IMG/VR virus record: IMGVR_UViG_2974671799_000001
Coordinates: 1-64,000 of that record
DNA from: a virus
Lineage: Duplodnaviria > Caudoviricetes
Direction: 5' to 3' (one strand)
Length of the DNA: 64,000 nucleotides
Both the position numbers and the translations under genes were made by a program. Below the pieces are notes generated by a model. It saw only the letters and a program-made list of their open reading frames with translations, did not search any database and was not told where the DNA came from. This document shows positions 19,100 to 60,543 of this stretch, piece by piece (the first letter of the stretch is position 1; every line of letters begins with the position of its first letter).

Positions 19100-19278
19100 T
19101 TTTATTTATGTTATTTGTATTTATAATATATAAAAGAAAATGCACCTAGGTACATTTTCACTGATTTTCTTTTAATGAAAAATTTGTTTTATTGAGAATC
19201 TTTCAAAGAATTTGTTAAAATATTATAACTACAATAATGTTTGTATATGTCAAAAATTTTTCGGGTGTAAATGTTTAA
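19100..19278. repeat. dispersed 179-bp repeat, copy 1
   Basis: Aligns without gaps to 60365-60543 with 11 mismatches; contains a 24-bp palindrome at 19136-19159. Confidence 0.95.
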
Positions 19279-19621
19279 TTTTAAACAATTTGTTATAAAA
19301 TATAAATTTTATTACTTAAAAATCTTATTATTAGGTATTTAACTAGAATTTTTAGATAAGACTAAAAATATTATTAGGTATGTCTAAAAATTCAATTTTT
19401 CAATTATTAATTAAAACTTACAGATTGTAATCAAATTATGTTAAAATACTTACATATTATAAGCAAAATCATACATTAAATTAAACATTAAAATAGTTTT
19501 TGTTGTATAGTTTCGATAACTAATTTATAATCATGTATTTAAAAATGTTAAAATTTTAATAAGTTTCCTTAAAAATGTTAGAAAGTTACAATTTATAACT
19601 TGAAATAACACATTTAATTGC

Positions 19622-19659
19622 AACAAAAAATCCCGCTATTTTTAGCGGGATTTTTTGTT
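19622..19659 (-). terminator. intrinsic terminator
   Basis: AACAAAAAATCCCGCTA-TTTT-TAGCGGGATTTTTTGTT perfect stem. Confidence 0.85.
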
Positions 19660-19823
19660 TAAATTTCTTCTGAAATTGATTCAACTTTTTTCTTAATTTT
19701 TGCTAATTTTTTATCCTTTTTAGCAAGCTCTTTTTCCAAAAATAATGTATAATTATTCTTATTATATGGATTGAATTTAGACAATCCTTCTTCTTCTAAA
19801 TACTTCTTTCTATACTTTGACAT
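19659..19823 (-). CDS. small basic hypothetical protein (54 aa, not in the ORF track)
   Basis: MSKYRKKYLEEEGLSKFNPY...SEEI*, directly after the upstream stop and ending at the terminator. Confidence 0.65.
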   Translation of the reverse strand: MSKYRKKYLEEEGLSKFNPYNKNNYTLFLEKELAKKDKKLAKIKKKVESISEEI

Positions 19824-19824
19824 A

Positions 19825-20577
19825 CTAATTATATTTACGTATTCTTAATATTTCATTATGTTCAGATATATCGATAGAGTGTTCAAACCAATCCAAATAC
19901 TCTTCCTCTGAATACATTTCAAATGCATCTTTTTGTGTAACTAAATCATTGGAAATCATACCCATACGCTTATACAATTTACGATGTGTATTTATTTCTT
20001 TTTGATTCTTACGCATAGATTTATAGAACTGGTCAACCTCATCTTTTTCAATCTTTAAATCAAGAATATCCTTACATAATTTAGTATGGAAATCATCGAT
20101 AAAGTTATGATAATCAACACCTTTAAACATATAAAGTGGGTGTAATTTTTCAATATATCTAGATGTCATTCTACCAAAGATTTGTAAATCCATATCAATA
20201 CCTTCATTAACACCTTTTGCATTAAACTCCCAGTTTTCATCAGTAAAATGATAATCATAACCTAAACGATTTTCTTTAATAAAATCATAATCTTGGTTAA
20301 TATACACGTAGAAGTTTCTTTTTGAACAACCTTTATATGCTTCTTCATAGAAAATATCAATAGATTCAATAACTATTTCTTTACGTTCTTCTCCTAAAAT
20401 ATCAGAAACATTATTATTTTTAAAAACAAATCTATTAATAATATCACCTATCCTAACATACTGATTAAGAAGGAATAATTCATAAGTATCTAAAGTTTCA
20501 GGAATATGACCATAAAACCATCTTGGCGAAACAGTAACTCTTAGTTTTGTTTCAGAATTATTTAGTTGTAACTTCAT
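19825..20577 (-). CDS. hypothetical protein
   Basis: 250-aa ORF in operon. Confidence 0.7.
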   Translation of the reverse strand: MKLQLNNSETKLRVTVSPRWFYGHIPETLDTYELFLLNQYVRIGDIINRFVFKNNNVSDILGEERKEIVIESIDIFYEEAYKGCSKRNFYVYINQDYDFIKENRLGYDYHFTDENWEFNAKGVNEGIDMDLQIFGRMTSRYIEKLHPLYMFKGVDYHNFIDDFHTKLCKDILDLKIEKDEVDQFYKSMRKNQKEINTHRKLYKRMGMISNDLVTQKDAFEMYSEEEYLDWFEHSIDISEHNEILRIRKYN

Positions 20578-20857
20578 CTAATGTAGTTTTAAGTTTAGCT
20601 AAAACACAAATATCTGTGATTTCAATAATGTATTCATTGTTAACCTTTTCAACATAACCAACGATTTCACCTTCGACTATGTTACCAGTTTCCTCACTTA
20701 CGTATTTGTAACGATATGTTGTTTTACCAAAAAGATTAAATTCTAAATGCATTATAGTTTTTGGTGTTGTTACATTACTATTTGAAAGTGTTTTTGGTGA
20801 GGTTTGTGTAAATCCAACCCAAACTTCACCTATATTTAATAATACTGTTTTACTCAT
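20558..20857 (-). CDS. hypothetical protein
   Basis: 99-aa ORF overlapping its neighbours. Confidence 0.65.
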   Translation of the reverse strand: MSKTVLLNIGEVWVGFTQTSPKTLSNSNVTTPKTIMHLEFNLFGKTTYRYKYVSEETGNIVEGEIVGYVEKVNNEYIIEITDICVLAKLKTTLDEVTTK

Positions 20858-21521
20858 TTGTTTTTAAATTTTTAATTTGTTCTTTATTTAATTCACATAT
20901 CTTACTTACAGTTCTAAACATAATTAGTAATTCTATATAACAATCTAAACTAGATGTATCAATATAGTTTAAATCTGTAAGATATGCCTTTTCGCTTAAA
21001 TCAAATTTGGTGAACTCTTTCAAAGTGTCATGTAAATTCAACTTTTGGTTATTAATTGAAAGTCTATTTTTTATTTCAATTAACAACTTTAAGTATTTGT
21101 TTGCATACTTTTTTAAATCTATTGTTTTATAGTTTCGTAGAATCTCTTTGAAAGCTCCTGTTTTCTCATCAACTTTAAAAGGTTGTGATAAGTTATTAGC
21201 CACACTAAGTACTTCAACAAAATATTCAAGTTCATTTAAGTTATAATTTGAAACAAAATTATCACATTCTACTTTCCAATTTAAACCATCTATACAATAA
21301 CACATTACGTTTTTACTACTATCTTCAACATCCTCATATAAGAACATTAACTTTGGTTTCAAGTTTTTAGATATACCAACCGTTACATTATTCTTTTGAT
21401 ATGTTAATGGGAAATCACCAGTATTATTATCTAAATGGATAAGAAATTTTAAAGCATCTTGTAAATCAACTTCGTAATTCTCATGTTTAAATATATCTGA
21501 GTATTTTTGTATTCTTTGCAT
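20850..21521 (-). CDS. hypothetical protein
   Basis: 223-aa ORF after the promoter at 21537-21568. Confidence 0.7.
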   Translation of the reverse strand: MQRIQKYSDIFKHENYEVDLQDALKFLIHLDNNTGDFPLTYQKNNVTVGISKNLKPKLMFLYEDVEDSSKNVMCYCIDGLNWKVECDNFVSNYNLNELEYFVEVLSVANNLSQPFKVDEKTGAFKEILRNYKTIDLKKYANKYLKLLIEIKNRLSINNQKLNLHDTLKEFTKFDLSEKAYLTDLNYIDTSSLDCYIELLIMFRTVSKICELNKEQIKNLKTNE

Positions 21522-21536
21522 AAATAATATTTTTAG

Positions 21537-21584
21537 TAAATATATACAAAAAAATCGGAACTCCCAAAGGAAATTCCGATTTTT
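21537..21584 (-). promoter_or_regulatory. promoter overlapping a terminator hairpin
   Basis: TTTG(21565-21568, exactly the loop)-N20-TATATTTA; AAAAATCGGAA/TTCCGATTTTT stem. Confidence 0.7.
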
Positions 21585-21588
21585 ATTT

Positions 21589-22758
21589 TTAAGGATTATT
21601 TCTACAATAATTCACTTCACAAATTTGTTTCAAGCAATCATCATATGCTTTATGTGTTAATAAAGGGTAATGAACTCCATTTGATAAGATTTCACTTACT
21701 ACGCTTTTATCGTTTCTTAACTCCCATTCATCAATGATAGTTCTTATACATCTTGATTTGTTATAAACCATGAAAATATCATAATCAAATGCTGTTAACC
21801 ATTCATTTATAATACGAGTATCAAAATCAGGTGATTTACAATAAATGAAAACATTATATTTTTTACTAAGGTTTTCATAGAACATTTTAAATTCCATTAA
21901 AGCAACTAATAATTCAACATCTGAATCATTATTATCAAGGAATGTCATTGAGTCTTTGTTTTGTTTCATCCACCACATAATAGTGTTCATTTGTGGATAA
22001 ACATCTAAGCCTCTACGCTTATACTTATCATAGCACTCAATATCAATATGTGTTTCGAATATCAAATCATCATCAATTCTAATACCAAAATTATCAAATC
22101 CAATTGCTGAAATAGATGTTATTGGAACTAAACCTTCATGTTCTTTTCCTAAAGTTTCAATATCTAACATTAAATCCAATCTAGGTTTTGATTTATTATC
22201 AATTCCCAAAATATTGTTTATTTGTTCTGTTACAAAATATATATCATCTTCACCATTTATAACATGAGCATTTTGTATATTATTTAAAATAGGTAATGTA
22301 CTTTCTTCATATACTTCCAAACGTTTTTTAATAATACCAACTTCTGAATCTTCAATACGACCGCTTGTTTTACCCCTTTCTAATGAACGTGATATAACAG
22401 TATCATCATTAACATGAATGTATATAACTTCAAATTCTATATTTAATTCGCGACAAATTGTGTTTTTTAGATATTCAAATTGCTCTATCGTTCTACAAAC
22501 ACCATCGAAAATAAAAGGTTTATTATATTGTCGAAGTCTAGTAATCTCATCACGCATGATTTTAAGTATAACATCATTCGGCATTAACTTACCTTCTTTA
22601 TCCAATTCGATTGCTTGTAATCCAATTTCTGTTTTATCCTTTTTATGTCTTCTTAGGATATCACCCATTCCAATATGGATATAACCTATTTTTTTTAGTT
22701 TTTCGGATTGTGTACCCTTTCCGCAAGCAGGTTTACCTATTAAAAGTACTGATTTCAT
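21589..22758 (-). CDS. adk: adenylate kinase fused to a DEDDh 3'-5' exonuclease (DexA/RNase AS-like)
   Basis: GKPACGKGTQ P-loop, GDILR, FDG..R, GRIED; C-terminal LDIETLG, DFD, HKAYDD. Confidence 0.85.
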   Translation of the reverse strand: MKSVLLIGKPACGKGTQSEKLKKIGYIHIGMGDILRRHKKDKTEIGLQAIELDKEGKLMPNDVILKIMRDEITRLRQYNKPFIFDGVCRTIEQFEYLKNTICRELNIEFEVIYIHVNDDTVISRSLERGKTSGRIEDSEVGIIKKRLEVYEESTLPILNNIQNAHVINGEDDIYFVTEQINNILGIDNKSKPRLDLMLDIETLGKEHEGLVPITSISAIGFDNFGIRIDDDLIFETHIDIECYDKYKRRGLDVYPQMNTIMWWMKQNKDSMTFLDNNDSDVELLVALMEFKMFYENLSKKYNVFIYCKSPDFDTRIINEWLTAFDYDIFMVYNKSRCIRTIIDEWELRNDKSVVSEILSNGVHYPLLTHKAYDDCLKQICEVNYCRNNP

Positions 22759-22771
22759 ATATTTGTTTTGT

Positions 22772-23095
22772 TTATGATTTTGCTGATAAATTAAAATAAT
22801 AGTTCCCAGTTATGCTACCGTCTGTATAGCTTAATCTGAACTTATAAATTCCACCACCTTTTTTATTAGCTACCTTATTACCTTCTGCTTTGAAAAATAG
22901 TGAATGTGGTGCTTTTTCGATTAGTGTTATTTCGAAGTTCTCATCCAAATACTCAATATGGTTGAAAACTTTTTTATTGTCGTGTCTTACTTTACCAATT
23001 CTCAAATGTCTGAACTCGTTGAATAGATTATTCAAACCTATTTGAACGAGTTCAGAATTTGTTTTAATTTGGTTTATATCTAACCCATTAAGCAT
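22772..23095 (-). CDS. hypothetical protein
   Basis: 107-aa ORF. Confidence 0.65.
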   Translation of the reverse strand: MLNGLDINQIKTNSELVQIGLNNLFNEFRHLRIGKVRHDNKKVFNHIEYLDENFEITLIEKAPHSLFFKAEGNKVANKKGGGIYKFRLSYTDGSITGNYYFNLSAKS

Positions 23096-23216
23096 TACTC
23101 TTTGATGTCTTCTGTAATCGTTTGCTCTTCATTAACGATTCCATCTTCAACTTGTTTAGTTTGTTCAACATCTTGGCTATCTGTAATCATCTTGTTTTCA
23201 TCTTTAATCATCGTTT

Positions 23217-23843
23217 TTAAATTTTAGTTATAGACTTTATTCTACCATATATTTTATAATCTCTTGCGTATGGTTCGCCATTATTCTTTACTTTATTGAA
23301 AGTGTATTTGAAACAATTAGCTTCATTTTGACCTTTATACATATCTCCTGATGGATAATGAATTGACTTTATAAAAAGAATTTCTTCTCTGTTTGGGTCT
23401 TTACCCACACCCATAAATTGAGAATAACAAACTTTAACTTTATCACCAACTTTTAGTTTCGAATTGTTAGTATATTCCATTTTTATGTTACGTAATTCAA
23501 TCTGCATTTCTGTAATCTTACTTTCAATATCAATTATATTTTTCATATCATATAATGATTTCAAGTAATTTGAGTAATTTTCTGATAAGAATAACTTAAA
23601 CTCATCAATCAATCCGATAACATCAAATTCAAATCCTTTTATATTTTTCACATAAACCTTTTTGAAAATACCACTTATCTCAATAACTATTGTTTTATCA
23701 CCTGATGTTACATTAGTCATGCAATGACGTAGGATTTTATATTCTTCATTTAATTCGAATATTTTACCCAACTTATTCGATGTAGCACCTTTTTGATTGT
23801 AAATAAGCAGGTTTCTACCCATTTCAGTTAAAATTTTACTCAT
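23217..23843 (-). CDS. hypothetical protein
   Basis: 208-aa ORF. Confidence 0.7.
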   Translation of the reverse strand: MSKILTEMGRNLLIYNQKGATSNKLGKIFELNEEYKILRHCMTNVTSGDKTIVIEISGIFKKVYVKNIKGFEFDVIGLIDEFKLFLSENYSNYLKSLYDMKNIIDIESKITEMQIELRNIKMEYTNNSKLKVGDKVKVCYSQFMGVGKDPNREEILFIKSIHYPSGDMYKGQNEANCFKYTFNKVKNNGEPYARDYKIYGRIKSITKI

Positions 23844-23844
23844 A

Positions 23845-24543
23845 CTATACAGATAGGTTTAAAAGTGCGTTGATTGTCTCAATATTGTTTGAAAGACGAT
23901 TCTTTTCCTTTTTAATAGAATCTAATATTATATATCTAAATTCAGGATTTTCAGAAGTCTCTAAATAATAACCTTCCAAACTATTTAAAATTTCAACATT
24001 GTTATTTTCTATATTTTTAACAAAATCAAATAATGAATCACTTATTAAATCAAAACAGTTGTTTGAACTATGATTATTTAATTTCGAAAAACGAACCATT
24101 ATATCATTTAGTACTTTCTTGTAAAATGTAAGTTGCTCCAAACGCTCATCCTCATACATGATATAATCCTTTACTTTTTGGTATATCTCTATATTTGTGA
24201 GGTCAAAAGGATTTTCACCATCCAAATTATAATTTTTGAACTTACCTCCCAATTTATACTTTTGGATATTATCAACTTTGTTATACTCTTGATACAAACG
24301 ATAAACAACACTTTTTAAAGCTCTTAAATCTGATTCACTTTCACCTTTGAAATATGTATCTAATTCATTATATACTAAATCTTTGATATCGAAAATTTCA
24401 TCATCAACATCATCAATCATAATAGATAAATCATTTATAAATTCCATTGATTTTTCAAAATTAATACTTCTTTCAGATTCCTTATCTTTATCAAAATCTA
24501 GTAGTTCCTTATATGAAACCAAACCTAATATTCGTCTTAACAT
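23845..24543 (-). CDS. hypothetical protein
   Basis: 232-aa helical ORF. Confidence 0.7.
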   Translation of the reverse strand: MLRRILGLVSYKELLDFDKDKESERSINFEKSMEFINDLSIMIDDVDDEIFDIKDLVYNELDTYFKGESESDLRALKSVVYRLYQEYNKVDNIQKYKLGGKFKNYNLDGENPFDLTNIEIYQKVKDYIMYEDERLEQLTFYKKVLNDIMVRFSKLNNHSSNNCFDLISDSLFDFVKNIENNNVEILNSLEGYYLETSENPEFRYIILDSIKKEKNRLSNNIETINALLNLSV

Positions 24544-24546
24544 ATC

Positions 24547-25485
24547 TTAATTTATTTTAGTTAAAAATTCGTTTGCTAATGTATGTGATTTGAACTTTAT
24601 TTTTATCTTTCCGTTCTTAGAAAGTTGATAGTATTCTATAATATCAGTTCCAGTCATTTTCTTATCATAAATACATTTTTCATCATCTAAACTATAATTA
24701 TGATTTATACAGAACTCCTTAATAAAACCTTTATAAGTCAAAACATCTGATACACTAGAATCATACTCTTTGTATAATTCATTTATTACAGTTGATAATG
24801 ATTTTATAAGTTTCAAATTATAGTCTCTAGCATGGTGACTCTTTGGATTATTCAAAATACTAGGAAATGATAAAGAACCATTTTTAGCAATTATCACATC
24901 ACCTCTGTGTGTATCTTCATTATACAATTCGTAAAGGAACTTTTTAGATTCTAAAATTTGATGTTCATTCAAATCTAATCCACCTATTTGTTCAAAAATA
25001 TAATCAATAATAGTATCATAATGTAATTCTAAATCAGAAATAGCACTATATTTTACCTTATCACTCATACCCCAATATGTCGGATAACGAGAGTGATTAT
25101 ACAATTGTTTAACAGCATAACCATCTGAAAATTCCCACTTCTCAATATCTATTTCGATATTGTATTTCTTGCAAATATATTCTGATACAGATTTTATGAA
25201 TCTATGGTGACAGTTTCCTGCATCTTTTTGAGCGACTAATAAAGATTCTTTTGAATCGAAAGACATATACTCAAAAGTGTTATTAAAACTAGTTCCGTTT
25301 ATAACTCTTTGTTTTAATTCAGGTTTTATATTTCTAAGTTGTTCTAAAGATTTAATACACTCTTTATTGTATTGTAATGCTTCTTTATAATCATTTAAAA
25401 GAGCATCTAAATATGATATATCTTCATGCGGTAATCTATTGGTGTTGTCAACTTTTACGTTGCTAAATTTTCCTAGTAAATCCAT
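24547..25485 (-). CDS. hypothetical protein, DUF4942-like methylase-associated domain
   Basis: C-terminal KNGKIKIKF..ANEF resembles methylase-associated domains; start MDLLGK after the promoter at 25506-25537. Confidence 0.5.
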   Translation of the reverse strand: MDLLGKFSNVKVDNTNRLPHEDISYLDALLNDYKEALQYNKECIKSLEQLRNIKPELKQRVINGTSFNNTFEYMSFDSKESLLVAQKDAGNCHHRFIKSVSEYICKKYNIEIDIEKWEFSDGYAVKQLYNHSRYPTYWGMSDKVKYSAISDLELHYDTIIDYIFEQIGGLDLNEHQILESKKFLYELYNEDTHRGDVIIAKNGSLSFPSILNNPKSHHARDYNLKLIKSLSTVINELYKEYDSSVSDVLTYKGFIKEFCINHNYSLDDEKCIYDKKMTGTDIIEYYQLSKNGKIKIKFKSHTLANEFLTKIN

Positions 25486-25505
25486 TATTAAATTGTTTTG
25501 TTGAG

Positions 25506-25544
25506 CAAAAATAAAAAATCCTTTGGAAGTAACCAAAGGATTTT
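25506..25544 (-). promoter_or_regulatory. promoter overlapping a terminator hairpin
   Basis: TTTG(25534-25537)-N20-TATTTTTG; AAAATCCTTTGG/CCAAAGGATTTT stem; near-identical to 45209-45248. Confidence 0.75.
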
Positions 25545-25548
25545 GTAA

Positions 25549-26070
25549 TTATTTTACTTCAATAAGTAAATCATATTCCAATTTATATCTTGCAACATCA
25601 CCTTCTGAATTAATTAACTCAAATCTAGCATTACTGAAAACATATTTTGTAGAACCTTTAATGTTTAAAGTGTATGATTCCTGTCTAAAAGACCTAAATT
25701 CACCATGCTTCCACGGATATGATGTTGTTTTAACAACAACATGAACTTCGCGCAATTTTTTATCAAAGAAATAATCTAAAGTTTTTGTTTTTGAAACAGC
25801 CCTATAAGAATCAAATGGAATTTCAGGATATGTGTAGATAGTATTGAATGATGTTAAATACAATCTAGTACTAGTCCTATGACTATTTAGTGTTGGTGTA
25901 CTACAATTAATAAACTCACCTTTTGAGTTCTTTTTAATATTCTTTGATGATACTCTATTTGTATGAGCATTATAAACTGTTACATACTTATCGTCTTTAG
26001 AAAGAATGAAAACACCTCTATAGTAAGGACATTTCATTAACATTTCAGTTAAATTATTGAAATTTTTCAT
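25549..26070 (-). CDS. hypothetical protein
   Basis: 173-aa ORF. Confidence 0.7.
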   Translation of the reverse strand: MKNFNNLTEMLMKCPYYRGVFILSKDDKYVTVYNAHTNRVSSKNIKKNSKGEFINCSTPTLNSHRTSTRLYLTSFNTIYTYPEIPFDSYRAVSKTKTLDYFFDKKLREVHVVVKTTSYPWKHGEFRSFRQESYTLNIKGSTKYVFSNARFELINSEGDVARYKLEYDLLIEVK

Positions 26071-26072
26071 AT

Positions 26073-26909
26073 TTATAAATTTATTGATTTTACATATTCA
26101 ATGTGTTCACTTGACATAGGTGTTCCATGAAAGTTAACACCTAAAAATACATTTTTAACATCTTGGTCTGTAGCCAAGTCACCTAATTCACCATAAGATA
26201 ATCTACGATAGTCTAAAAACATTCTCTTAGCAACTAAAGATAAATCCTTCCAGTAAATACCATCTTTAGTACAAAATTCATTTCTGAACCATCTAATCAA
26301 AGTAGTTAATCTTTGTTTACCGTCCACAACCTCACACATAGATGCATCACTTGGTTGTTTATGATACATTTCTTTACACCACTCATATGAACGAGTTCTT
26401 AAAATAATCTTACCAATATCAACATTATTGAAAATAGACTCTATTAACAATTGTTGTTGCTCTAAAGTCCAAACAAAATCACGTTGATAACGCTCAATCT
26501 CACCATCTTTGTTAACCATAAAAGGATTGAAATTACAAGCAACTAAATCATAGGTGTATTCAGGTTCTTCACGAAACTTTCCTGACATTGCATCAAATCC
26601 CATGACACTAAAAATACTAGATAAACCATAACTAATATTTCTAAGCTTAGAATCCCAACGGAACTTCGGGAATGGGTTGATACCAATATTTCCAATATAA
26701 ATTTTATATTCGCCATCAGCAACAAATACAGGTTCTTTATATCCAAATTGTTTATAATAAACACCACCATCAGAAATTGAATGAACTTTAGCAGTATTAA
26801 TATATGCATTCTTATTCTTAGTTCCAAGACCTTTAGGTAATATAGTATCACCAACTTGAACTGGTCTTTCTAAATGTTCTTGAATTTTTTGTTCTAAAGA
26901 TTTTTTCAT
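26073..26909 (-). CDS. DUF262 (GmrS/ParB-like NTPase) domain protein
   Basis: YQRDFVW, LIESI, VVDGKQRLTT and F..VN..G motifs. Confidence 0.85.
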   Translation of the reverse strand: MKKSLEQKIQEHLERPVQVGDTILPKGLGTKNKNAYINTAKVHSISDGGVYYKQFGYKEPVFVADGEYKIYIGNIGINPFPKFRWDSKLRNISYGLSSIFSVMGFDAMSGKFREEPEYTYDLVACNFNPFMVNKDGEIERYQRDFVWTLEQQQLLIESIFNNVDIGKIILRTRSYEWCKEMYHKQPSDASMCEVVDGKQRLTTLIRWFRNEFCTKDGIYWKDLSLVAKRMFLDYRRLSYGELGDLATDQDVKNVFLGVNFHGTPMSSEHIEYVKSINL

Positions 26910-26913
26910 TTTT

Positions 26914-27804
26914 TTAAATTTTATTTTCTATATAATAATCTTCTAGGAACAAATATAACAATTTTTCTTGTAAACTAACAACTTCTAAGCAAAAATAATT
27001 TTCACTTTTTGGGTTTATATTCAAACTAAGGCTTGGTAAAAACGCATGACCCGTTGTATTGTTGAACTCCCTAATAAGAATATCTACTTGATGTCTATTT
27101 GATTTTAAATAGTCTAAACCTTCCATTTCATCAATTTCCGAACGCATTTTCTTATAAGCTATAATACAATCTCTCATTTTAGGTTCTAAAAGAACTTTAT
27201 ATAAATCCATATTAGAATTTACCTTAAATGTATCTTTTGGGTCTGTTGAATTAAGCATTTTATTATAATATTCTACAGATAAATCCCAAAGAAAAATTTG
27301 AGAATTTGATTTAGAAGTAACAACATAACACCCACCATCATGATTATAACGGTTTACTTTAATATTTTCAAATATTTGGAAATAGTTTTGATTAAAATTC
27401 CAAATCAAATTATCGGTATGTTTAATATGATATGAATCATTACTTTTAGCACAGCTTTTAAAAGCATCATAGAATTTAATAAACTTATCAATATACTCAG
27501 TTAACATCATTGATGATGGTACTTGCTCAATCAAATGCATTGAAACCAACAAATGAAATATTAAATCATTTCTTTTCCTGTTGCCAAAATCTTTATATAC
27601 ACTAGTATCATGATTTATAGATATTATCCCTTGATTTTGATATAAATCTAGATGAAGACCTTCTAAAATACCACATGAATTTTTGAATTTTAATAACTCA
27701 AAATCACACGATAACATAAATTCTTTATCAATAACATTACCTCTTTTACTTTCAAGGAATAGTGTTAATTCCTTGAAAGATTTTCTTAATTTTTTACCGT
27801 TCAT
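26914..27804 (-). CDS. hypothetical protein
   Basis: 296-aa ORF between the methylase-helicase and DUF262 genes. Confidence 0.7.
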   Translation of the reverse strand: MNGKKLRKSFKELTLFLESKRGNVIDKEFMLSCDFELLKFKNSCGILEGLHLDLYQNQGIISINHDTSVYKDFGNRKRNDLIFHLLVSMHLIEQVPSSMMLTEYIDKFIKFYDAFKSCAKSNDSYHIKHTDNLIWNFNQNYFQIFENIKVNRYNHDGGCYVVTSKSNSQIFLWDLSVEYYNKMLNSTDPKDTFKVNSNMDLYKVLLEPKMRDCIIAYKKMRSEIDEMEGLDYLKSNRHQVDILIREFNNTTGHAFLPSLSLNINPKSENYFCLEVVSLQEKLLYLFLEDYYIENKI

Positions 27805-27815
27805 AATTTATTATT

Positions 27816-30821: not shown

Positions 30822-30845
30822 TTCTTTAAGTTGATTTTGATAATA

Positions 30846-35249: not shown

Positions 35250-35289
35250 CAAATATAAAAAACCTTTTGGAAACTACCAAAAGGTTTTT
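35250..35289 (-). promoter_or_regulatory. promoter overlapping a terminator hairpin
   Basis: TTTG(35278-35281)-N20-TATATTTG; 13-bp stem. Confidence 0.8.
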
Positions 35290-45208: not shown

Positions 45209-45248
45209 TAAAAATAAAAAATCCTTTGGAAAACACCAAAGGATTTTT
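45209..45248 (-). promoter_or_regulatory. promoter overlapping a terminator hairpin
   Basis: TTTG(45237-45240)-N20-TATTTTTA; AAAAATCCTTTGG/CCAAAGGATTTTT stem. Confidence 0.7.
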
Positions 45249-45257: not shown

Positions 45258-45971
45258 TTAACAATTGTATTTTGCTCTAACTCTATCAACTTCTGCTATA
45301 AGTTTTTTAGTCTCTTCAAAACAGAAATATAAGTACCCCAAACAATCACCTTTCTTATCGATAGAAATAGAACAAGTTAATTCACGAACATCATCAGCAC
45401 TTAACTTAGCCAAGTGTTCATAAATTTCTTTAACCGAAACGTTACTCATATCTAACTCTTTACTTCTTGAATCGTAATCATCTGATATCCTTTCAATATT
45501 ACTTTTAGTCTTATAAATATAAGTTGTGTTAATTATTTTTGCTTTTTCTACGATTTCTAAAATTTCATCATTGTAATATTTTGATAAAATAGTTTCTTTA
45601 ATATCCTGTAACTCTTTTTCCCATGTATTGAATAACCTAGAAATTTTATTAATGTATTTTAATTCCAAATTTTTATTACTGTTTTCAGAATCATAATAAT
45701 ACCAATCTTCGATAACATCTAAGTCCTCATTTAATCTCATTCCGAAATATGAAGTTTCACCTAATTCAAATTTAACAAATAATTCGGTTTTACCACTAAT
45801 TGATGTAAATACAGACATTTTTGCATCATGTTGTAAATCAATTATATTATTCAAGTACTTGAATGAATTTTTTGATTCATCGATGAACTTATAAACTTCA
45901 CTTACTTTATTATAATCTAATACAATATCCTCTGCTTTTCTTAACTGTGATAATTTTGTAATTCTAGTCAT
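45258..45971 (-). CDS. hypothetical protein
   Basis: 237-aa ORF after the promoter at 46008-46039. Confidence 0.7.
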   Translation of the reverse strand: MTRITKLSQLRKAEDIVLDYNKVSEVYKFIDESKNSFKYLNNIIDLQHDAKMSVFTSISGKTELFVKFELGETSYFGMRLNEDLDVIEDWYYYDSENSNKNLELKYINKISRLFNTWEKELQDIKETILSKYYNDEILEIVEKAKIINTTYIYKTKSNIERISDDYDSRSKELDMSNVSVKEIYEHLAKLSADDVRELTCSISIDKKGDCLGYLYFCFEETKKLIAEVDRVRAKYNC

Positions 45972-46036: not shown

Positions 46037-46101
46037 AAATTTTTAACACATTTTTGTCACAAATATATACTAAATTTGTGACAAAAACGTGTTAAAAATT
46101 T
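46037..46101. repeat. 28-bp-arm inverted repeat
   Basis: AAATTTTTAACACATTTTTGTCACAAAT-N9-ATTTGTGACAAAAACGTGTTAAAAATTT, one mismatch. Confidence 0.85.
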
Positions 46102-48637: not shown

Positions 48638-48640
48638 ATC

Positions 48641-49351: not shown

Positions 49352-49426
49352 AATTATAAATTTTTGTTATTAAATTGATTTCTGACACAAATATAAATTG
49401 TTATTTTTTATTACGCAATAAAAATT

Positions 49427-50305: not shown

Positions 50306-50307
50306 GA

Positions 50308-50878: not shown

Positions 50879-50914
50879 AATTTATAATTTTTTGTTTCAC
50901 CAAATATAGTGAAA

Positions 50915-51505: not shown

Positions 51506-51506
51506 A

Positions 51507-52076: not shown

Positions 52077-52077
52077 T

Positions 52078-52671: not shown

Positions 52672-52675
52672 AGTT

Positions 52676-52974
52676 TTATATGTTAAAGATTATATACAAG
52701 ACCAACAATAGGAACAAAAATAAATATTTACCAATATAAATTATTCCAACTAAAGCCAAAATCAAACCAATCCATGTATTTGATAGCTTAACTAATAAGT
52801 TTTTAATTAATTTAATTATCGTAAAAATATCATAAAAATTAATGCAAAAATACAAACAACAACGAATATAAACTTGAATAATTTATCAAGTAACCATTTA
52901 AATAAATATACGAAACCTATAAGTGATATAGCTAGTATAAAAAATTTAGCAATATAATTAAAAATTTTTTTCAT
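52676..52974 (-). pseudogene. hydrophobic ORF apparently split by a 1-nt deletion in a T5 run
   Basis: MKKIFNY...ALIF stops early; adding one T restores a frame (YDIFTIIK...YIIFNI*) that ends just before the next gene. Confidence 0.45.
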
Positions 52975-52999
52975 TTTTGTTTATATTTAATTTATGAAG

Positions 53000-53044
53000 C
53001 AAATCTACAAACAAAAAATGGATTTCCAAAGGAAAATCCATTTT
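53000..53044 (-). promoter_or_regulatory. promoter overlapping a terminator hairpin
   Basis: TTTG(53027-53030)-N19-TAGATTTG; AAAATGGATTT/AAATCCATTTT stem. Confidence 0.75.
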
Positions 53045-53048
53045 ATTT

Positions 53049-53351
53049 TTATTTACGACACTTATCATGCCACTTTTTCAATTTTTCATACTGTATTTGA
53101 TTCAACTCGTCTGCCGTTATGTCAGGTTTGTTTAACAAAATTATGTCTAAAAGACAGTTTATTGCATCAATAGCCTCACCAACCACGCCATCTTTACCCG
53201 CTTCTTTATAACTCATACCTAAATCAATAGCTATTTCTGTTGAAAGTTCACCAACTTCCTCATTAAGTTTTAAAGCAACTCCTGCTATATGTCGGTCTTT
53301 AATATCATTACTAAATGATTTAAAGTTTTCTAAAATATCACCTATCATCAT
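53049..53351 (-). CDS. mazG: MazG-like NTP pyrophosphohydrolase
   Basis: KLNEEVGEL...GEAID. Confidence 0.8.
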   Translation of the reverse strand: MMIGDILENFKSFSNDIKDRHIAGVALKLNEEVGELSTEIAIDLGMSYKEAGKDGVVGEAIDAINCLLDIILLNKPDITADELNQIQYEKLKKWHDKCRK

Positions 53352-53352
53352 A

Positions 53353-53901
53353 TTAATTTGATTTTATATTTAGTGTTAAAAACCTAAGATATGCTATTGA
53401 CCAAAGTGGGTCAACAACCTCTGTTAAAGCGTTAATATCAAATGTACTAACCCAACGATTTGATGAAATGTTTTCGTTCATATCATTTTCATTATCGGGT
53501 TTAGGTTTTGTTTGAATAGCATTTGTACAATCTACAGCAAATAAGTGATAAATAGTATCTGTGCTTTTTGTACCATAACAAGTTCCTAATGGTGAAATAT
53601 CTGAGTATTTTATTAAATAACCAGTCTCTTCCATCATTTCCTGTTTTACTGTCTCTTTCGGATGTTGACCTTTTTCAACACCACCAGTAACTGATGAAGG
53701 ATTTTTGCCCATATTCCAACATGGTGTATATTCGTCACGTATCATGACTTCCAATTCACCATCCACAAATCTAAAAGGTATAATTGCAACAATATTACCA
53801 TCACATCTAACCTCGCGCGTGTATGTGTACTTTCCTGTAGGAAACTCTTCTTCAATAAGCTCTATCCATTTGTTAGAGCCTAAAATTGTCTTTTTATTCA
53901 T
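53353..53901 (-). CDS. NUDIX hydrolase
   Basis: GGVEKGQHPKETVKQEMMEETG Nudix box. Confidence 0.85.
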   Translation of the reverse strand: MNKKTILGSNKWIELIEEEFPTGKYTYTREVRCDGNIVAIIPFRFVDGELEVMIRDEYTPCWNMGKNPSSVTGGVEKGQHPKETVKQEMMEETGYLIKYSDISPLGTCYGTKSTDTIYHLFAVDCTNAIQTKPKPDNENDMNENISSNRWVSTFDINALTEVVDPLWSIAYLRFLTLNIKSN

Positions 53902-53902
53902 T

Positions 53903-54190
53903 TTAATAAGTTGTTGATGTTACCCAACTTTGTCTAGGATGATTCGACATCCTAGATTCATCTTTTTCGGTAACGGTTAATACTTCTTTTTCTACGGTCA
54001 TTATTTTTTCATCAACAATAATATTATCAATACTATGCCTTGAACATACTTTATAATTCTGATATAATTCTAATACCTCACTAAATACAAATTGTGGAAT
54101 TTCACCTGCCACTAGTGTTATTGTTTTAGAATGATTATCAATCTGAATTATATAGTCTTTGGTTTTAATTAATGATTTTATTTCTTTCAT
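53903..54190 (-). CDS. hypothetical protein
   Basis: 95-aa ORF. Confidence 0.6.
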   Translation of the reverse strand: MKEIKSLIKTKDYIIQIDNHSKTITLVAGEIPQFVFSEVLELYQNYKVCSRHSIDNIIVDEKIMTVEKEVLTVTEKDESRMSNHPRQSWVTSTTY

Positions 54191-54204
54191 AATATCTATA
54201 TTTT

Positions 54205-54927
54205 TTAACCAAAAATTAAGAAACCAGTCAAAACAGTAATAACAACACCCATTAAGAATATAATACCTCTTTTACGTTGGTTTGATTTAACAGAATCTTT
54301 AATAATATTTTCCTTAATCACAATAGATGTTTTGTGAGATTCTTTATGTTCTTTCAACTCTTTTTCCAACTCATAGTTTCTATTACGCAAATAACCTAGT
54401 TCAGAATCAACATCACCTTTCAATGATATAACACCATTTGAATGTAAATTACCATTTTCAAAAATAAAACCTAATAATTTTATTTTCAAAAATATATCCA
54501 CTAAAAACCTTTCATCTTCGTTTGTCGCAGTATAAAATCCGTGATGTCTTTGTATAAATTCTACAAATCTACTATAGTTTTCTGTTTTATAAACTTTTGA
54601 AAATTGTAATATTTTATCAAACTTATAAAAAGATAAATTAGAATCATCAAGACATAATACGTTATAACCACCTTTCAATAATTCAAACTCATCAAGTTTA
54701 TTGAAAAGTTCGTTATTTTTCAAGTCGTCTAACATTTCTTTTCTTAGTTCTAATGACATTTCAGCATTTAACATTTCATTCCTAAGACTATCAATAGATT
54801 TTGCTAATTTATACTTCTCACAAATATTTTCTATTTCATCAACCTTCTGCATTTTCTCATATGCATCTTTTAGAATTTCGTATTCTTTATTAGGTACAAT
54901 CCTATCGTGTTTAATTATCAAATCCAT
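54205..54927 (-). CDS. coiled-coil protein with C-terminal TM
   Basis: Start MDLIIK overlaps the upstream stop (TAATG); tail anchor. Confidence 0.7.
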   Translation of the reverse strand: MDLIIKHDRIVPNKEYEILKDAYEKMQKVDEIENICEKYKLAKSIDSLRNEMLNAEMSLELRKEMLDDLKNNELFNKLDEFELLKGGYNVLCLDDSNLSFYKFDKILQFSKVYKTENYSRFVEFIQRHHGFYTATNEDERFLVDIFLKIKLLGFIFENGNLHSNGVISLKGDVDSELGYLRNRNYELEKELKEHKESHKTSIVIKENIIKDSVKSNQRKRGIIFLMGVVITVLTGFLIFG

Positions 54928-55691
54928 TACATAAAAATATTTAAAGCGATTGAACCAATTGTAATACCTAATCCTAAGTAAAACATCCATCTATTAGCAT
55001 AGTATTTACCATAGTATTTTTGAAGCTCTTTTTGACTATCTTCATAATTTGATGTAATACCTTTAATACTATCTTCTAAAGTTTTATTTGTATTTTTAGT
55101 ATCAACACTATTATAAATTATTGTATAAATAGCTGATTCTAAATCAATTCTATCAGATTTTGTTAATCCTGACAAATCGAATGATTTCATTAGTGATTTG
55201 AACGCATCACAAACATAAGAAGTCTCATCTTCAATACTATTACCGAAGTATGGGTTATTTTTATTTTTAACACCCATATCATATATTTTTACATTATCAC
55301 CTAAAAACATACTTAAAAACTTAGTCAAACCTTTAATATTAAACTCAGATTCATCAGGCATATTTTCAAAATAACCATTGAATGTTTTATACAAATTAAC
55401 CGATAATACATTACCTTTTTGAATCTCTTTTTTCAAAAAATCAAAATGTTCTTTAGTAAGATTCTTAACTTGCTCCAATTCTTCTTCTGCAACAATTTTA
55501 TCATGTTCCAATGCTGTGATTTCACATTGAATTTCATGAGAATAAGCCATCGAATTTATAATTGGTTGTGAATAATTTTCACATAAATTATTTTTTAAAA
55601 CCGTCTCACAGTTTAAAAGTTGTTGTAATCGGTCACCTTTTACAATAACCGATTCAACATTGTTTTCATTAGTAATATCTAATCTCTTCAT
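54927..55691 (-). CDS. coiled-coil protein with C-terminal TM
   Basis: Same architecture as the downstream neighbour. Confidence 0.7.
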   Translation of the reverse strand: MKRLDITNENNVESVIVKGDRLQQLLNCETVLKNNLCENYSQPIINSMAYSHEIQCEITALEHDKIVAEEELEQVKNLTKEHFDFLKKEIQKGNVLSVNLYKTFNGYFENMPDESEFNIKGLTKFLSMFLGDNVKIYDMGVKNKNNPYFGNSIEDETSYVCDAFKSLMKSFDLSGLTKSDRIDLESAIYTIIYNSVDTKNTNKTLEDSIKGITSNYEDSQKELQKYYGKYYANRWMFYLGLGITIGSIALNIFM

Positions 55692-55692
55692 A

Positions 55693-56709
55693 TTATTGTT
55701 GTTTTTGTTTCTTAACTAAGAACTGAACCTCGGAACACATAGCCATTAAACTAGTTAATTGGTCGGGTTTATTCAAAGATTCGTTTTTATACTTATGAGC
55801 CATTACATACAAATACTCTAAAATATTCGTGTTAATATTATTCTCATACATCCATGTAATCATTTTATCACCCATAGCAATAATTAGGTTATAATATTGA
55901 TTAGGGAAATTCTCTAAAATATACTTCTTAATTGTTGTTATAGATGTAGGTTTAGTAAATAACTTAAAATAATCAACAAAATCAGCAGACATTTCACGTA
56001 AAATAAGTTCCTTTGTAATCGTTCTTTCACCCTTCTCATAACACGTTTGTAAAGCCTCAATAATATCTCTAACATCAGAATATGATGATAATAAAGACAT
56101 AACAGCATCCTTCTCTATTGTTAAACCTTCCTCATTACAAATAAACATAATTCTTTTAGCTTTTTGCATAAGAACTTCTCTAGCTCTATCACCACGAAAG
56201 TTGAAATCAATCTTACAACCAAATCTTGATAAAATTGCTTTATTTAAGTTTTCATAGTAGTTACAAGTAGCAATGTAACGAACATTATTTGAATCCTTTT
56301 CCATTACACCACGGAAAGCTAAGTTGGCATCGTTGGTGAAATTATCAATCTCATCAATCATCATTAGCTTAACTTTTGATGATGATGAACTTACATTACC
56401 AAAAGGTTCGATAATATTTCTAACAGTATCTATACCATTTTGTGATGAACCATTTATTAATTTATTGTTGGGGAACAATTTACCCAAAATAAACATAACT
56501 GTTGTTTTACCTAATCCAGTATCACCATACATTAAAATGTTTCTTGTAACACCATTATCAATAAAATACTGAATCTGTGTCCTAACATCGTTTGGTAACG
56601 CAACATCATCAAGATTTTTAGGTCTATACTTTTCAACCCATAGTGATTTTTTACGTGTTTTTTGTTGCTCCTTAGATAAAGGATTCTTTTCTTTACGTAC
56701 TATACTCAT
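55693..56709 (-). CDS. sliding-clamp loader AAA+ subunit (T4 gp44/RFC small subunit-like)
   Basis: LWVEKYRP, GDTGLGKTT, GIDTVR, IDEID, TCNY, ILSR. Confidence 0.92.
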   Translation of the reverse strand: MSIVRKEKNPLSKEQQKTRKKSLWVEKYRPKNLDDVALPNDVRTQIQYFIDNGVTRNILMYGDTGLGKTTVMFILGKLFPNNKLINGSSQNGIDTVRNIIEPFGNVSSSSSKVKLMMIDEIDNFTNDANLAFRGVMEKDSNNVRYIATCNYYENLNKAILSRFGCKIDFNFRGDRAREVLMQKAKRIMFICNEEGLTIEKDAVMSLLSSYSDVRDIIEALQTCYEKGERTITKELILREMSADFVDYFKLFTKPTSITTIKKYILENFPNQYYNLIIAMGDKMITWMYENNINTNILEYLYVMAHKYKNESLNKPDQLTSLMAMCSEVQFLVKKQKQQ

Positions 56710-56730
56710 AAATATATTTTTGTTTTAGTT

Positions 56731-58197
<1,467 letters not shown>

Positions 58198-58212
58198 TAA
58201 AAAATATGTTTT

Positions 58213-59859
58213 TTATTTTAATTCTACAAATCCTTGCTTTCCAAGGGTGTTTATTTTTACTAATTCTACACCTTCTAAATCGAAATCCTTCCCAACACCA
58301 TAAATTGATGGTATATTCAAAGACTTTGAAAGTGCTAATATGTGCGAAAATACAACATTTTCTCTTACTATCAAAATTTCTTTGTCGATTAATTCCTTAG
58401 ATTCACATTCAGAGTCTATTACAAGAACCTTTTCGGGTATAGCCATGTTACTACCTCTACAATGAGAAGTACCTAAAATTGCATCACTAGGCACTTTTAC
58501 ATCCTTAATTGATTGCGTACTCGTAACTCTCAATTGTAAAATATGAATATTAAAACCATCAAAACAAAACTCAATTTGTACATCAGATTCAAAATCCTTA
58601 GATAATTCCATAATCAACCTCTCAATATAATCAGAAACCAACTTGGAAACCTTTATTTCACTAACTTTACCACCAACAATATCATCACGCTTGTCTGATA
58701 TCGCAATATCAAATTTACCATCATAAACATTAGCAACACCAATATAACCTTCAACCTCTCTTTGATAAAAATAATGAAATTCATTTTGTGGTCGCAAATC
58801 TTTATACTTTTCATATTCAGATTCCATAGTTTTTATAGTTTCTTCACATTTTTCAGTAGAAATACCAAAGTATGAAGTTAAAATACCACCCATAGACTTA
58901 TTTGGAGACGTTCTAAGAGCATATTTACCATCTAAAGGTGTCTTACTATACTCAGGAATAGAAACGTCCTTAAAACGGCTTAAAAATGCTAATGAGCCAA
59001 ATTTAGCACCACACTTCTCTTCTTCGATAACATAATCCAATAAAGCCTTTGATGTTGTCCTTCCACAAGCGTAAAATTCATTAAAATGATTTCTCATGTG
59101 ATATAACATCTTTAGTTGCTCTTCTGTTGGTTTATGTTTCTTTTTATCCATCATCCAGTTTCTCTCCAATACATTTCCCAAATAGTTGCATTTAACTTGA
59201 CCACTTGAAATATGTAAAACCTTTCGTTCATTAGAATCGAACCAACTATCCGTACTACTCAAACCAGTTGCGTGTAAAAGTGGGTATAAATCAACATGAC
59301 CTTCAAATCCACATTCAATAAATAAACCACATTGAGTTATTACACCGTTTCTTAATTTTTGCTCTTGTGTTAACGGATATTCATTAACATTATCCATCGA
59401 ATACACACCAAAATTATTATCTATGAAAATAGAATCACGGAATATTGTTCCTAATGTCTCAGCTTTAAAAACTTTTTTCAATGCAGTAACATCCCTATCA
59501 TCGAAATCATTATCTAAAACATATTCAATTTGATATGTCTCATAGGAAACTCTATAATCTCTATTTAAACGACTTAATAAAGTTCTCCAACCAGTATAAA
59601 GCATTTCGTTTGCTGTCTCTAATTCAGATATATCATGTTGAGGTGTTATATAAATACCTTCTTCGGTTCTTGTATCACCTGCTAAAATAAAAGCCTTTCT
59701 AAAGAAGCCCAAAATATAAACCATATGTTTTTCATCATTGATATCCAAACCACCCGATAAAATAATTTCCAATGCTATGTGAAATTCTCCTGATGATATA
59801 TTATCTTGAATCTGTCTTGTTAAATCTTCACCTAATGCGTAAAATGATAAACTTGCCAT
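58213..59859 (-). CDS. PEP-utiliser/PPDK-like kinase (ATP-grasp plus phosphohistidine domain)
   Basis: GAK..SL, LRTS, G..TS, YQREV, IEF, ILQLR, then SH...LSKSLNIP mobile-domain motif. Confidence 0.7.
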   Translation of the reverse strand: MASLSFYALGEDLTRQIQDNISSGEFHIALEIILSGGLDINDEKHMVYILGFFRKAFILAGDTRTEEGIYITPQHDISELETANEMLYTGWRTLLSRLNRDYRVSYETYQIEYVLDNDFDDRDVTALKKVFKAETLGTIFRDSIFIDNNFGVYSMDNVNEYPLTQEQKLRNGVITQCGLFIECGFEGHVDLYPLLHATGLSSTDSWFDSNERKVLHISSGQVKCNYLGNVLERNWMMDKKKHKPTEEQLKMLYHMRNHFNEFYACGRTTSKALLDYVIEEEKCGAKFGSLAFLSRFKDVSIPEYSKTPLDGKYALRTSPNKSMGGILTSYFGISTEKCEETIKTMESEYEKYKDLRPQNEFHYFYQREVEGYIGVANVYDGKFDIAISDKRDDIVGGKVSEIKVSKLVSDYIERLIMELSKDFESDVQIEFCFDGFNIHILQLRVTSTQSIKDVKVPSDAILGTSHCRGSNMAIPEKVLVIDSECESKELIDKEILIVRENVVFSHILALSKSLNIPSIYGVGKDFDLEGVELVKINTLGKQGFVELK

Positions 59860-59861
59860 AA

Positions 59862-60257
59862 TTAAATAAATGTTGCTAATGATAAATCTTTGTTAATACT
59901 AGTACCACAGTTTGTTGCCTTGTTTATTTTAAAAACCTTACCAATACAACCATTTTTAAAATTAATCAAATCTTTGTCATTTTGACCATTGAACTGTTTT
60001 AATTTATTAATCTCACCAAATGGTGTATCAATGAAGTGTGGAAACCAAATATTAATAACTTCCAAACTCAAAAAGTTTTTTGATTCATGTATAACTCTAC
60101 AAGTTCGACCAAATCCAGTAATTCTACTTGGTTTTAGTAAAACCAATTCACCAACTTTTATTTCCGATGAATTTATTTTAAAAATTCTAGTTGCGTCAAT
60201 TGATACAACTTCACCAATCGGAAACGCTTCTTTTAAATTTTGTTGAATAGTATTCAT
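59862..60257 (-). CDS. hypothetical protein
   Basis: Start MNTIQQ after TACATTTG at 60295. Confidence 0.65.
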   Translation of the reverse strand: MNTIQQNLKEAFPIGEVVSIDATRIFKINSSEIKVGELVLLKPSRITGFGRTCRVIHESKNFLSLEVINIWFPHFIDTPFGEINKLKQFNGQNDKDLINFKNGCIGKVFKINKATNCGTSINKDLSLATFI

Positions 60258-60364
60258 AATTTTATGTTTTATTTTTAATGAATTTTTGATACAACAAATG
60301 TAAAAACAATTATCCATTAAAACAAGAATTTTTATAAGAATTTTTTAAACCTCTCTCCGCGCGC

Positions 60365-60543
60365 TTTTATTTATGTTATTTGTATTTATAATATATAAAA
60401 GAAAATGCACCTAGGTGCATTTTCACTGATTTTCTTTCAATGAAAAATTCGTTTTATTAAGAATCTTTCAAAGAATTTGTTAAAATATTATCGCTACAGC
60501 AAGGTTTGTATATGTCGAAAATTTTTCGGGTGTAATTGTTTAA
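60365..60543. repeat. dispersed 179-bp repeat, copy 2
   Basis: 94% identical to 19100-19278; perfect palindrome GAAAATGCACCTAGGTGCATTTTC at 60401-60424. Confidence 0.95.

Follow-up and report, generated by a model that had tools for sequence, protein, structure and literature searches.

What kind of element are the two copies of a 179-base-pair (bp) non-coding repeat that lie 41 kb apart, at 19100-19278 and 60365-60543, in a 64,000-nucleotide (nt) stretch of a tailed-phage genome? The stretch (hereafter the window) comprises bases 1-64000 of the 234,670-bp virus record IMGVR_UViG_2974671799_000001, which is rated complete. An earlier reading made from the letters of the window alone (the sequence-only reading) had described the pair as a gap-free, palindrome-cored repeat shared by the two largest non-coding gaps, and had suggested dispersed replication origins or enhancers resembling the homologous regions (hrs) of baculoviruses, or a duplicated structured RNA. 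The alignment holds up, with 11 mismatches among 179 aligned bases and no gap by direct count, and the match has a chance probability of ~1e-72 per offset pair. Here, we report that the repeat is the conserved core of a non-coding module of 190-430 bp that is present in seven copies in the genome. We propose, giving the idea an even chance of being right, that the module is a cassette composed of a transcription terminator and a late promoter of the gp55 type, with regulator sites upstream, placed at the heads of seven gene blocks.

Results

Seven copies oriented with the local genes

A BLAST search of the genome and an nhmmer profile search both gave exactly seven copies and no degenerate extras; the element is multi-copy, as had been predicted, the number being seven in the whole genome and only two in the window. 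Numbered along the record, copies 1-4 start at 19100, 60365, 79558, and 118984 in the '+' orientation (first arm) and copies 5-7 at 139066, 181979, and 211516 in the '-' orientation (second arm), with spacings of 41.3, 19.2, 39.4, 20.1, 42.9, and 29.5 kb, and of 42.3 kb across the record ends. The first ~124 kb have their genes on the minus strand, and the stretch from ~128 kb up to 234 kb, where the record finishes, has them on the plus strand; because the '+' copies sit on the minus-gene arm and the '-' copies on the plus-gene arm, orientation relative to the local genes is uniform, and all seven copies are co-oriented with the genes around them. In the window the sense strand is the minus strand, which the sequence-only reading had already suspected of being the meaningful one, and all features of copies 1 and 2 given below are on that strand. 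The copies occupy 7 of the 11 largest intergenic gaps in the genome. Of the two window gaps ranked earlier as the largest, one is indeed the largest and the other is second or third, depending on the cut-off used for open reading frames (ORFs). The genes that flank different copies are not paralogues. Six of the seven downstream blocks start with replication or nucleotide-metabolism genes; copy 4 heads the block that contains the DNA-end-protector and portal genes, and copy 5 precedes the DNA polymerase gene.

The copies come in three forms. The long form (copies 2, 3, 5, and 6) measures ~400-430 bp, its members being 90-95% alike; copies 4 and 7 measure ~393 bp, are 95% alike, and can be aligned to the other copies only over a 150-nt core; and copy 1 is a short form in which ~190 nt are retained. 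The 179-nt block described earlier is thus real and is part of something longer: copy 2 in full is ~425 bp and spans 60327-60751 (self-BLAST; nhmmer E 9e-65). In the genome self-BLAST, 60327-60731 matches 182205-181802 at 94.8% over 407 nt and copies 3 and 5 at 90-91%. Copy 1 (19100-19288) consists of the core only, having lost the direct TGTTAA array described below; a repeat search extends the pair match from 19100/60365 to 189 nt at 93%.

Anatomy of the module

Read in gene direction and with positions counted from the centre of a hairpin (position 0), each copy has three parts in a fixed order, i.e., a layout of TGTTAA(AA) words, the hairpin with a T-run, and an invariant block of ~50 nt that contains the octamer TATAAATA. 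The upstream part, 125-330 nt long, has its seven or eight TGTTAA(AA) words arranged in a conserved way, with three or four direct words 9-12 nt apart at -300 to -250 and inverted TTAACA words at -230 to -212, near -160, and at -70, the last being found in 7/7 copies. In copy 2, the word map places three direct words, 9-11 nt apart, in 60662-60687 (at -274, -263, and -254) and further TTAACA/TGTTAA words in 60478-60625 (at -212, -158, -139, and -70); the layout of the direct array is the same in copies 3, 5, and 6 and similar in copies 4 and 7. The core common to all copies begins at ~-125. Upstream of it the word layout is still common to the long form and to copies 4 and 7, though BLAST no longer aligns those parts. 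The repeated TGTTAAAA/TTTTAACA words that had been noticed next to the repeat are enriched ~8-fold, with 30 of their 103 occurrences in the genome falling within 500 nt of an element, i.e., in 3.5% of the genome. From this arrangement we infer that the TGTTAA(AA) words are putative binding sites for a DNA-binding regulator.

The hairpin of copy 2 (60401-60424) reads GAAAATGCAC-CTAG-GTGCATTTTC, followed by TTTTATATAT on the sense strand, and is flagged as terminator-like on both strands by a scan; across the copies the sequence is GAAAATG(Y)AC-CTAG-GTGCATTTTC, again followed by TTTTATATAT. This is the 24-nt palindrome of the sequence-only reading, perfect in copy 2 and with one change in copy 1 (19136-19159), where a single sense-strand U-G wobble precedes the T-run. 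As the same reading had it, both copy-1 changes within palindromes are compatible with G-U pairing on the minus strand. The two smaller palindromes that it listed, TCTTTCAAAGA and CGAAAATTTTTCG, are present where it placed them and are not kept in the other copies.

Beyond the hairpin, the alignment of copies defines the invariant block, which in copy 2 extends over 60366-60415 (from CCTAGG to AAATAAA). Within it, TATAAATA begins 10 nt past the stem; on the minus strand it runs from 60390 to 60383 in copy 2 and from 19125 to 19118 in copy 1, confirming the motif call made for both copies. The long form alone continues into a tail (60327-60364 in copy 2, from the alignment of copies 2, 3, 5, and 6) composed of GCGCGCGGAGAGAGG, a GC-rich box, and then an A/T stretch, TTTAAAAAATTCTTATAAAAATT, the last part of the tail being a perfect 14-nt inverted repeat of 60570-60583, 226 nt upstream. 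The long form also carries internal 51-nt sub-repeats, 124 nt apart. Two candidate features of the element were rejected: the GCGCGC box is not element-specific (eight genome sites, only three of them in copies), and a small upstream peptide of 14 amino acids (aa), found in copies 2, 3, and 6, has a stop codon within it in copy 5 and no counterpart in copies 1, 4, and 7.

Uneven conservation around the hairpin

Only 2 of the 48 alignment columns past the hairpin loop vary among the seven copies, vs 23 of the 102 in the preceding core (Fisher p 0.004). All changes in the palindrome fall in the 5' arm, and the 3' arm is invariant. T4 late-promoter boxes lie at ~-13 to -6 relative to the transcription start; with TATAAATA in this position, the invariant block would span ~-39 to +10, the size of an RNA polymerase footprint, and the 3' arm of the hairpin would stay fixed while the 5' arm erodes because it falls in the -35 region of the promoter. 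The commonest hairpin change, C to T in six of the seven copies, gives a U-G wobble in the sense RNA and a mismatch on the other strand. The folding free energy (dG) of the sense RNA is -8.1 to -13.5 kcal/mol in 6/7 copies, with -13.5 kcal/mol for copy 2 and, for copy 1, -11.5 on the sense strand vs -7.1 on the opposite strand. Copies 1, 2, and 4 pass the terminator rule; copy 7 does not differ from copy 4 in this sequence. As a separate observation on the loop, CCTAGG occurs at 9 genome sites where ~12.7 are expected, and seven of the nine are the hairpin loops of the elements (19145 and 60410 in the window), i.e., the hexamer is strongly avoided elsewhere.

A terminator-like hairpin with a sense-strand wobble might also mark the end of a transcript that starts within the module, which would then be a multi-copy small RNA gene producing a gene-strand RNA of 130-330 nt from an unrecognised upstream promoter and ending at the hairpin and T-run, with a role as a regulator or decoy. 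A second terminator after the previous gene's own, as found at five copies, best makes sense if something starts between the two, and the sense strand of copy 2 folds better than shuffled sequences (z -3.8); the opposite strand, however, also lies below its shuffles (z -2.6). Searches of the seven loci gave no Rfam match at E<=1, the covariation term from RNAalifold is +0.88 with a compensatory change in only 1/49 pairs (a test of low power with seven near-identical copies), and the two small palindromes are missing from copies 4 and 7 and are disrupted in copies 3 and 5 by changes that have no compensating partner. There is no host-type promoter inside the element, whereas the tRNA cluster of the phage has one, and the most conserved part comes after the hairpin, not before it. 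We therefore do not favour the structured RNA of the sequence-only reading, and regard a small RNA gene as highly unlikely.

The same conservation pattern bears on the idea that the copies are functionless duplicated DNA, relics of a mobile or recombination-spread cassette that would matter only as a substrate for homologous recombination, with deletions between direct copies and inversions between the arms. The closest pairs do lie on opposite arms and in inverted orientation, with core identities over 150 nt of 100% (copies 4 and 7), 96% (copies 3 and 5), and 94.7% (copies 2 and 6), a pattern that fits exchange between the arms by gene conversion or inversion and hints at it. A common mirror axis for the most similar pairs was rejected, as their midpoints disagree (121, 109, and 165 kb). 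Copy 1, moreover, looks like a decaying copy because it is truncated, lies 260 nt from the next promoter, and has drifted towards A/T (at nine of the 11 positions where the two window copies differ, copy 1 has A or T and copy 2 has G or C). Neither Tenacibaculum phage PTm1 nor any other accessible sequence contains the element, and the promoter-early stem-loop (PeSL) cassettes of T4-type phages are known recombination substrates, according to the report on them (PMC2839356). Functionless DNA would not be expected, however, to show such strongly uneven conservation, or to keep its TGTTAA layout where the sequence is too diverged for BLAST to align; nor did we find a transposase (264 ORFs scanned against PHROGs), a target duplication, or terminal inverted repeats at the boundaries of homology, and the 3' boundaries are nested rather than identical. 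We give this explanation little credence. The sequence-only reading was correct in describing a real multi-copy, palindrome-cored non-coding element without a transposase, and recombination between copies, which it also raised, is plausible.

A candidate late promoter and a gp55-like sigma factor

The minus-strand octamer, noticed and left uninterpreted by the sequence-only reading, is the most informative feature of the element, lying as it does within the invariant block of a phage that appears to encode a gp55-like sigma factor. We take TATAAATA to be a candidate box of a late promoter of the T4 gp55 type. The exact octamer is found in 7/7 copies, 47-263 nt before the next ORF, on the strand of the transcribed direction. 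On both strands of the genome there are 89 sites, of which 18 are intergenic and co-directional with the genes vs an expectation of ~4%, which follows from the 8.2% share of intergenic DNA in the genome. The elements do not account for 11 of these 18. The non-element sites precede terminase, tail, and other structural genes, often in the form AAACTATAAATA, and among the 19 sites that are near a gene start and outside the elements, six have TATAAATA directly behind a strong terminator hairpin (dG -16 to -28), the same hairpin-then-octamer layout as in the 3' third of the element.

The assignment of the sigma factor comes from two comparisons. A 119-aa phage protein matches PHROG 234, 'late sigma transcription factor' (E 5e-7), and the best match of its structural model (pLDDT 79.3) in the PDB is 7d7c_F (E 6.9e-3, probability 1.00, TMq 0.72), a chain of the gp55-dependent T4 open complex, followed by sigma region-2 domains; there was no Pfam hit to this protein and no PDB hit by sequence. 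To judge by this fold and family match, the phage encodes a gp55-like sigma factor.

The gene content is in keeping with a T4-type phage. PHROG scans of the 264 ORFs identified a T4-like set of replication and morphogenesis genes, including a split DNA polymerase, clamp loader, topoisomerase II, RNA ligase, and polynucleotide kinase on the replication side and the DNA end protector, portal, prohead protease, tail sheath, and baseplate on the virion side; no phage RNA polymerase was found among the ORFs scanned. The nearest accessible relatives are Tenacibaculum phages PTm1/PTm5 and phage PAU, with ~33% identity in the tail sheath. Promoters of Bacteroidota hosts have a -33 TTTG and a -7 TAnnTTTG element, and this promoter was recovered de novo from the upstream regions of the phage genes, with the -7 box peaking 20-50 nt before the start codons. 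We conclude that the phage uses the host RNA polymerase, because the host-type promoter emerges from its own upstream regions; on the strength of its genes and promoters, it is a 234.7-kb T4-like jumbo myophage with a host within the Bacteroidota.

Host-type promoters and the TGTTAAA word

A position weight matrix (PWM) built from 48 host-type promoters was used to relate these promoters to the module. No strong host-type promoter lies inside any copy by this matrix, the best internal scores being 4-12 vs 18-25 for real sites. Six of the seven copies have a host-type promoter 50-260 nt downstream, with scores of 18-25 that are at or above the 99.99th percentile for the genome, these promoters probably being part of the training set. 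For copy 2, the -7 box of the next gene block, TACATTTG, lies outside the repeat at 60295-60302 (PWM 19.9), and for copy 1 the box TATATTTG is found 260 nt downstream at 18833-18840 (PWM 20.6), both on the minus strand. The gap with copy 4 contains only a weak host-type promoter (8.2) and no other TATAAATA; judged by sequence, the module there is the sole recognisable strong promoter of the DNA-end-protector/portal block.

On the other side of the module, an intrinsic terminator of the preceding gene (60812-61261) is located just upstream of copy 2 at 60773-60813 on the minus strand. Upstream of copy 1, a hairpin terminator follows gene 19825-20577 at 19622-19659; it is flagged on the plus strand and has A- and T-runs on both sides of the stem. 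Immediately upstream of copy 7 and on the opposite strand lies a gene with a T5orf172/MUG113 domain (genome 210893-211312), which may be a mobile insertion.

Beyond the copies, TGTTAAA is found at two sites of ordinary promoters. The first is a palindrome at 46037-46101 of the window, upstream of ORF 45258-45971, with 31-nt arms that are 94% complementary and 3 nt apart; its outer ends, TTTTTAACAC and GTGTTAAAAA, carry the word, its centre is a host-type promoter (TTTG ... TATATTTG), and it is probably an operator using the same word as the element. The second is a fourfold tandem array of TTTAACATTTA with an 11-nt period (genome 114385-114418), directly after a terminator and directly before the host-type promoter of an ORF of ~36 aa, upstream of the prohead protease gene. 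The presence of the word at these two sites suggests the site of a transcription regulator more than an origin iteron.

This point bears on the possibility that the modules are multi-copy replication origins or origin-enhancers, comparable to baculovirus hrs, to T4 oriE with its iterons, or to oriF/oriG with a promoter and an unwinding element. The TGTTAA arrays would then serve as initiator-binding sites, with strand opening at the hairpin or in AT-rich DNA; replication forks would move off the way transcription runs, and the clamps they leave could switch on the adjacent late promoter. T4 uses several replication origins, and here seven copies are dispersed 19-43 kb apart over a 235-kb genome. 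The three or four direct words with their 9-12-nt spacing, plus the inverted ones, have kept their layout between two diverged sub-families, the long form has its internal sub-repeats, and the upstream part is shielded from transcription because it lies between two terminator-like hairpins. AT-richness is uninformative about an unwinding region because the whole genome is 27% G+C. Cumulative GC skew traces one V, lowest at ~122-126 kb, without an inflection at any copy (a weak test, as skew tracks gene strand), and strict co-orientation with the genes and the promoter-like invariant block are more simply explained by transcription. None of the adjacent genes is an initiator gene, each copy has a single palindrome rather than a tandem series, and the syntenic sites of PTm1 have no equivalent (the gap before its DNA polymerase gene is 45 bp). 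The hr-like origin put forward by the sequence-only reading is therefore not favoured, the single palindrome, the smooth skew, and the use of TGTTAAA at ordinary promoters all speaking against it, and we consider an origin function of any of these kinds unlikely. That reading had further named the product of 7635-12074 as a primase-helicase that might bind the element. The 1479-aa protein has no primase domain and no PHROG hit, its sole Pfam match is a sub-threshold one to the ResIII helicase domain (E 6.7e-4, 20 bits vs a cut-off of 22.5), and nothing ties it to the element.

Searches beyond this genome

Exact patterns from two parts of the invariant block had no match in viral contigs, and a hairpin pattern had none in prokaryote genome contigs. 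A 19-base pattern matched 23 metagenome loci, which we attribute to chance since similarity ends after 20-35 nt in all of them; blastn against a phage collection gave only a 46-nt match in a Flavobacterium phage, likewise judged to be chance. Self-BLAST and nhmmer of PTm1 in full, as five loci, found no equivalent element. The largest gap of PTm1 looks like an unannotated gene. A closer relative is on record as a 232-kb contig encoding P0002, a gp55-like protein 65% identical to that of the phage studied here, and searches with the tail sheath, the DNA polymerase, or P0002 found no close relatives (in tblastn of P0002 against the phage collection, all 25 matching records were <60% identical). 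On present evidence from these sequence searches, the element appears to be confined to this phage lineage.

PTm1 has dispersed repeats of its own, ~50 nt long, in which the T-run of a terminator hairpin merges into a TTTG / TATATTTG host-type promoter, and which look like PeSLs adapted to a Bacteroidota host. They resemble the element in being repeated intergenic hairpin-then-promoter cassettes of Bacteroidota jumbo phages, and differ from it in their length of ~50 nt, in their host-type TTTG/TAnnTTTG promoter, in having no word arrays, and in showing no sequence similarity to it.

Other repeats and gaps in the genome

Several further features were recorded. The largest gap of the genome is a tRNA region (genome ~191.5-192.5 kb) in which ARAGORN predicts a tRNA with anticodon CUA (labelled Pyl, amber-suppressor-like) together with two 80-nt tRNA-Ile(UAU)-like genes, the latter inside an 87-nt repeat of 96.5% identity; a host-type promoter stands ahead of the first tRNA in the cluster. 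A 3229-aa ORF (genome 100772-110461) has a tail-spike-like segment and internal DNA repeats of ~135-160 nt with 76-79% identity (genome 102.2-108.3 kb). In the window, ORF 56731-58197 on the minus strand contains a long (ATC)n trinucleotide run at 56943-57081, and three near-identical terminator hairpins (AAAATCCTTTGG...CCAAAGGATTTT) lie ~9.7-10 kb apart at 25507-25544, 35251-35288, and 45210-45247.

Discussion

We favour, at even chances, a module in which the terminator-like hairpin would stop transcription arriving from upstream and in which, late in infection, the host RNA polymerase with the gp55-like sigma factor of the phage would restart it at TATAAATA. The downstream block would thereby be expressed late, in addition to its expression from its own host-type early promoter. 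The 3' arm of the hairpin runs straight into the block of promoter-footprint size, and the TGTTAA(AA) words upstream would bind a DNA-binding regulator.

Several observations weigh against this proposal. Copies 3 and 6 have a weak hairpin (dG -8.1) that the terminator scan does not flag, that of copy 5 is broken (dG -1.6), and the five copies that already follow the previous gene's own terminator do not obviously need a second one. The TATAAATA of the element has no AAAC prefix, unlike that of several other candidate late promoters, and it counts as one observation, not seven, because the copies are homologous. The invariant stretch could also be produced by recent gene conversion, and the scores of the downstream host-type promoters are probably affected by the make-up of the training set noted above. 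The proposal does not account for the conserved 125-330 nt upstream, because T4-type late promoters need no upstream sequence, and six of the seven downstream blocks begin with replication-type rather than classical late genes. Three of these points, namely the upstream conservation, the second terminator, and the replication-type blocks, leave room for an origin-enhancer or a small RNA.

Comparison with known systems helps to place the module. T4 late promoters have TATAAATA at ~-10, are served by gp55, gp33, and the gp45 clamp, and do not need conserved flanks. The present element shares with them the exact octamer, the encoded gp55-like sigma, and the occurrence of the octamer before structural genes, and differs in having ~50 invariant nt and a further 125-330 conserved nt upstream, being a candidate promoter by sequence.

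A second parallel is with the hrs of baculoviruses, which are tandem arrays of imperfect palindromes bound by IE-1. The likeness is that of a dispersed, multi-copy, non-coding palindrome element in a large double-stranded DNA virus that could act as both enhancer and origin; here, in contrast, there is one 24-nt palindrome per copy, in strict gene orientation, in a bacterial virus that uses the host RNA polymerase. In the boldest version of this parallel, which we think decidedly doubtful, the seven modules would be the phage counterparts of hrs, a protein bound to TGTTAA starting replication and the clamps left by the forks activating the built-in gp55-type promoter. If so, a replication origin and a late promoter would be coupled in one unit that is repeated around the genome, and an origin function would make the modules, to our knowledge, the first multi-copy, sequence-homologous origin-enhancer system in a phage.

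The closest parallel in kind is with PeSLs, described in two reports as mobile regulatory cassettes of the T4-type phages RB49/phi1 and others that are small, carry sigma70-like early promoters, and abound among the non-essential genes of hyperplastic regions (Arbiol et al. 2010, PMC2839356; Comeau et al. 2014, PMC4122927). The element is like a PeSL in being a dispersed, repeated, non-coding cassette of a T4-type phage, oriented with the genes, with a promoter and a terminator stem-loop, and a likely recombination substrate; all seven copies have the composite of a hairpin with T-run followed by the invariant TATAAATA block, for which we infer the corresponding function. It differs in its size of 190-430 bp, in its mere seven copies, 19-43 kb apart and at the heads of core gene blocks, in having a late-type TATAAATA after the hairpin and no strong sigma70-like or host-type internal promoter, and in its long upstream part with arrays of TGTTAA words. 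It is an enlarged relative of PeSLs and not a member of that group, because it has no host-type early promoter and is neither small nor present in high copy number, i.e., it is a longer and rarer relative of regulatory cassettes already known in T4-type phages.

For the biology of this phage, the analysis provides a concrete map of transcription punctuation in a little-studied Bacteroidota jumbo phage, in which seven near-identical control modules head replication, nucleotide-metabolism, and head gene blocks. It supplies a candidate late-promoter/terminator pair and a candidate operator word, TGTTAAA, for hosts with promoters unlike those of E. coli. Inversions and deletions are likely to arise between the long repeats, which may in this way shape the architecture of the genome.

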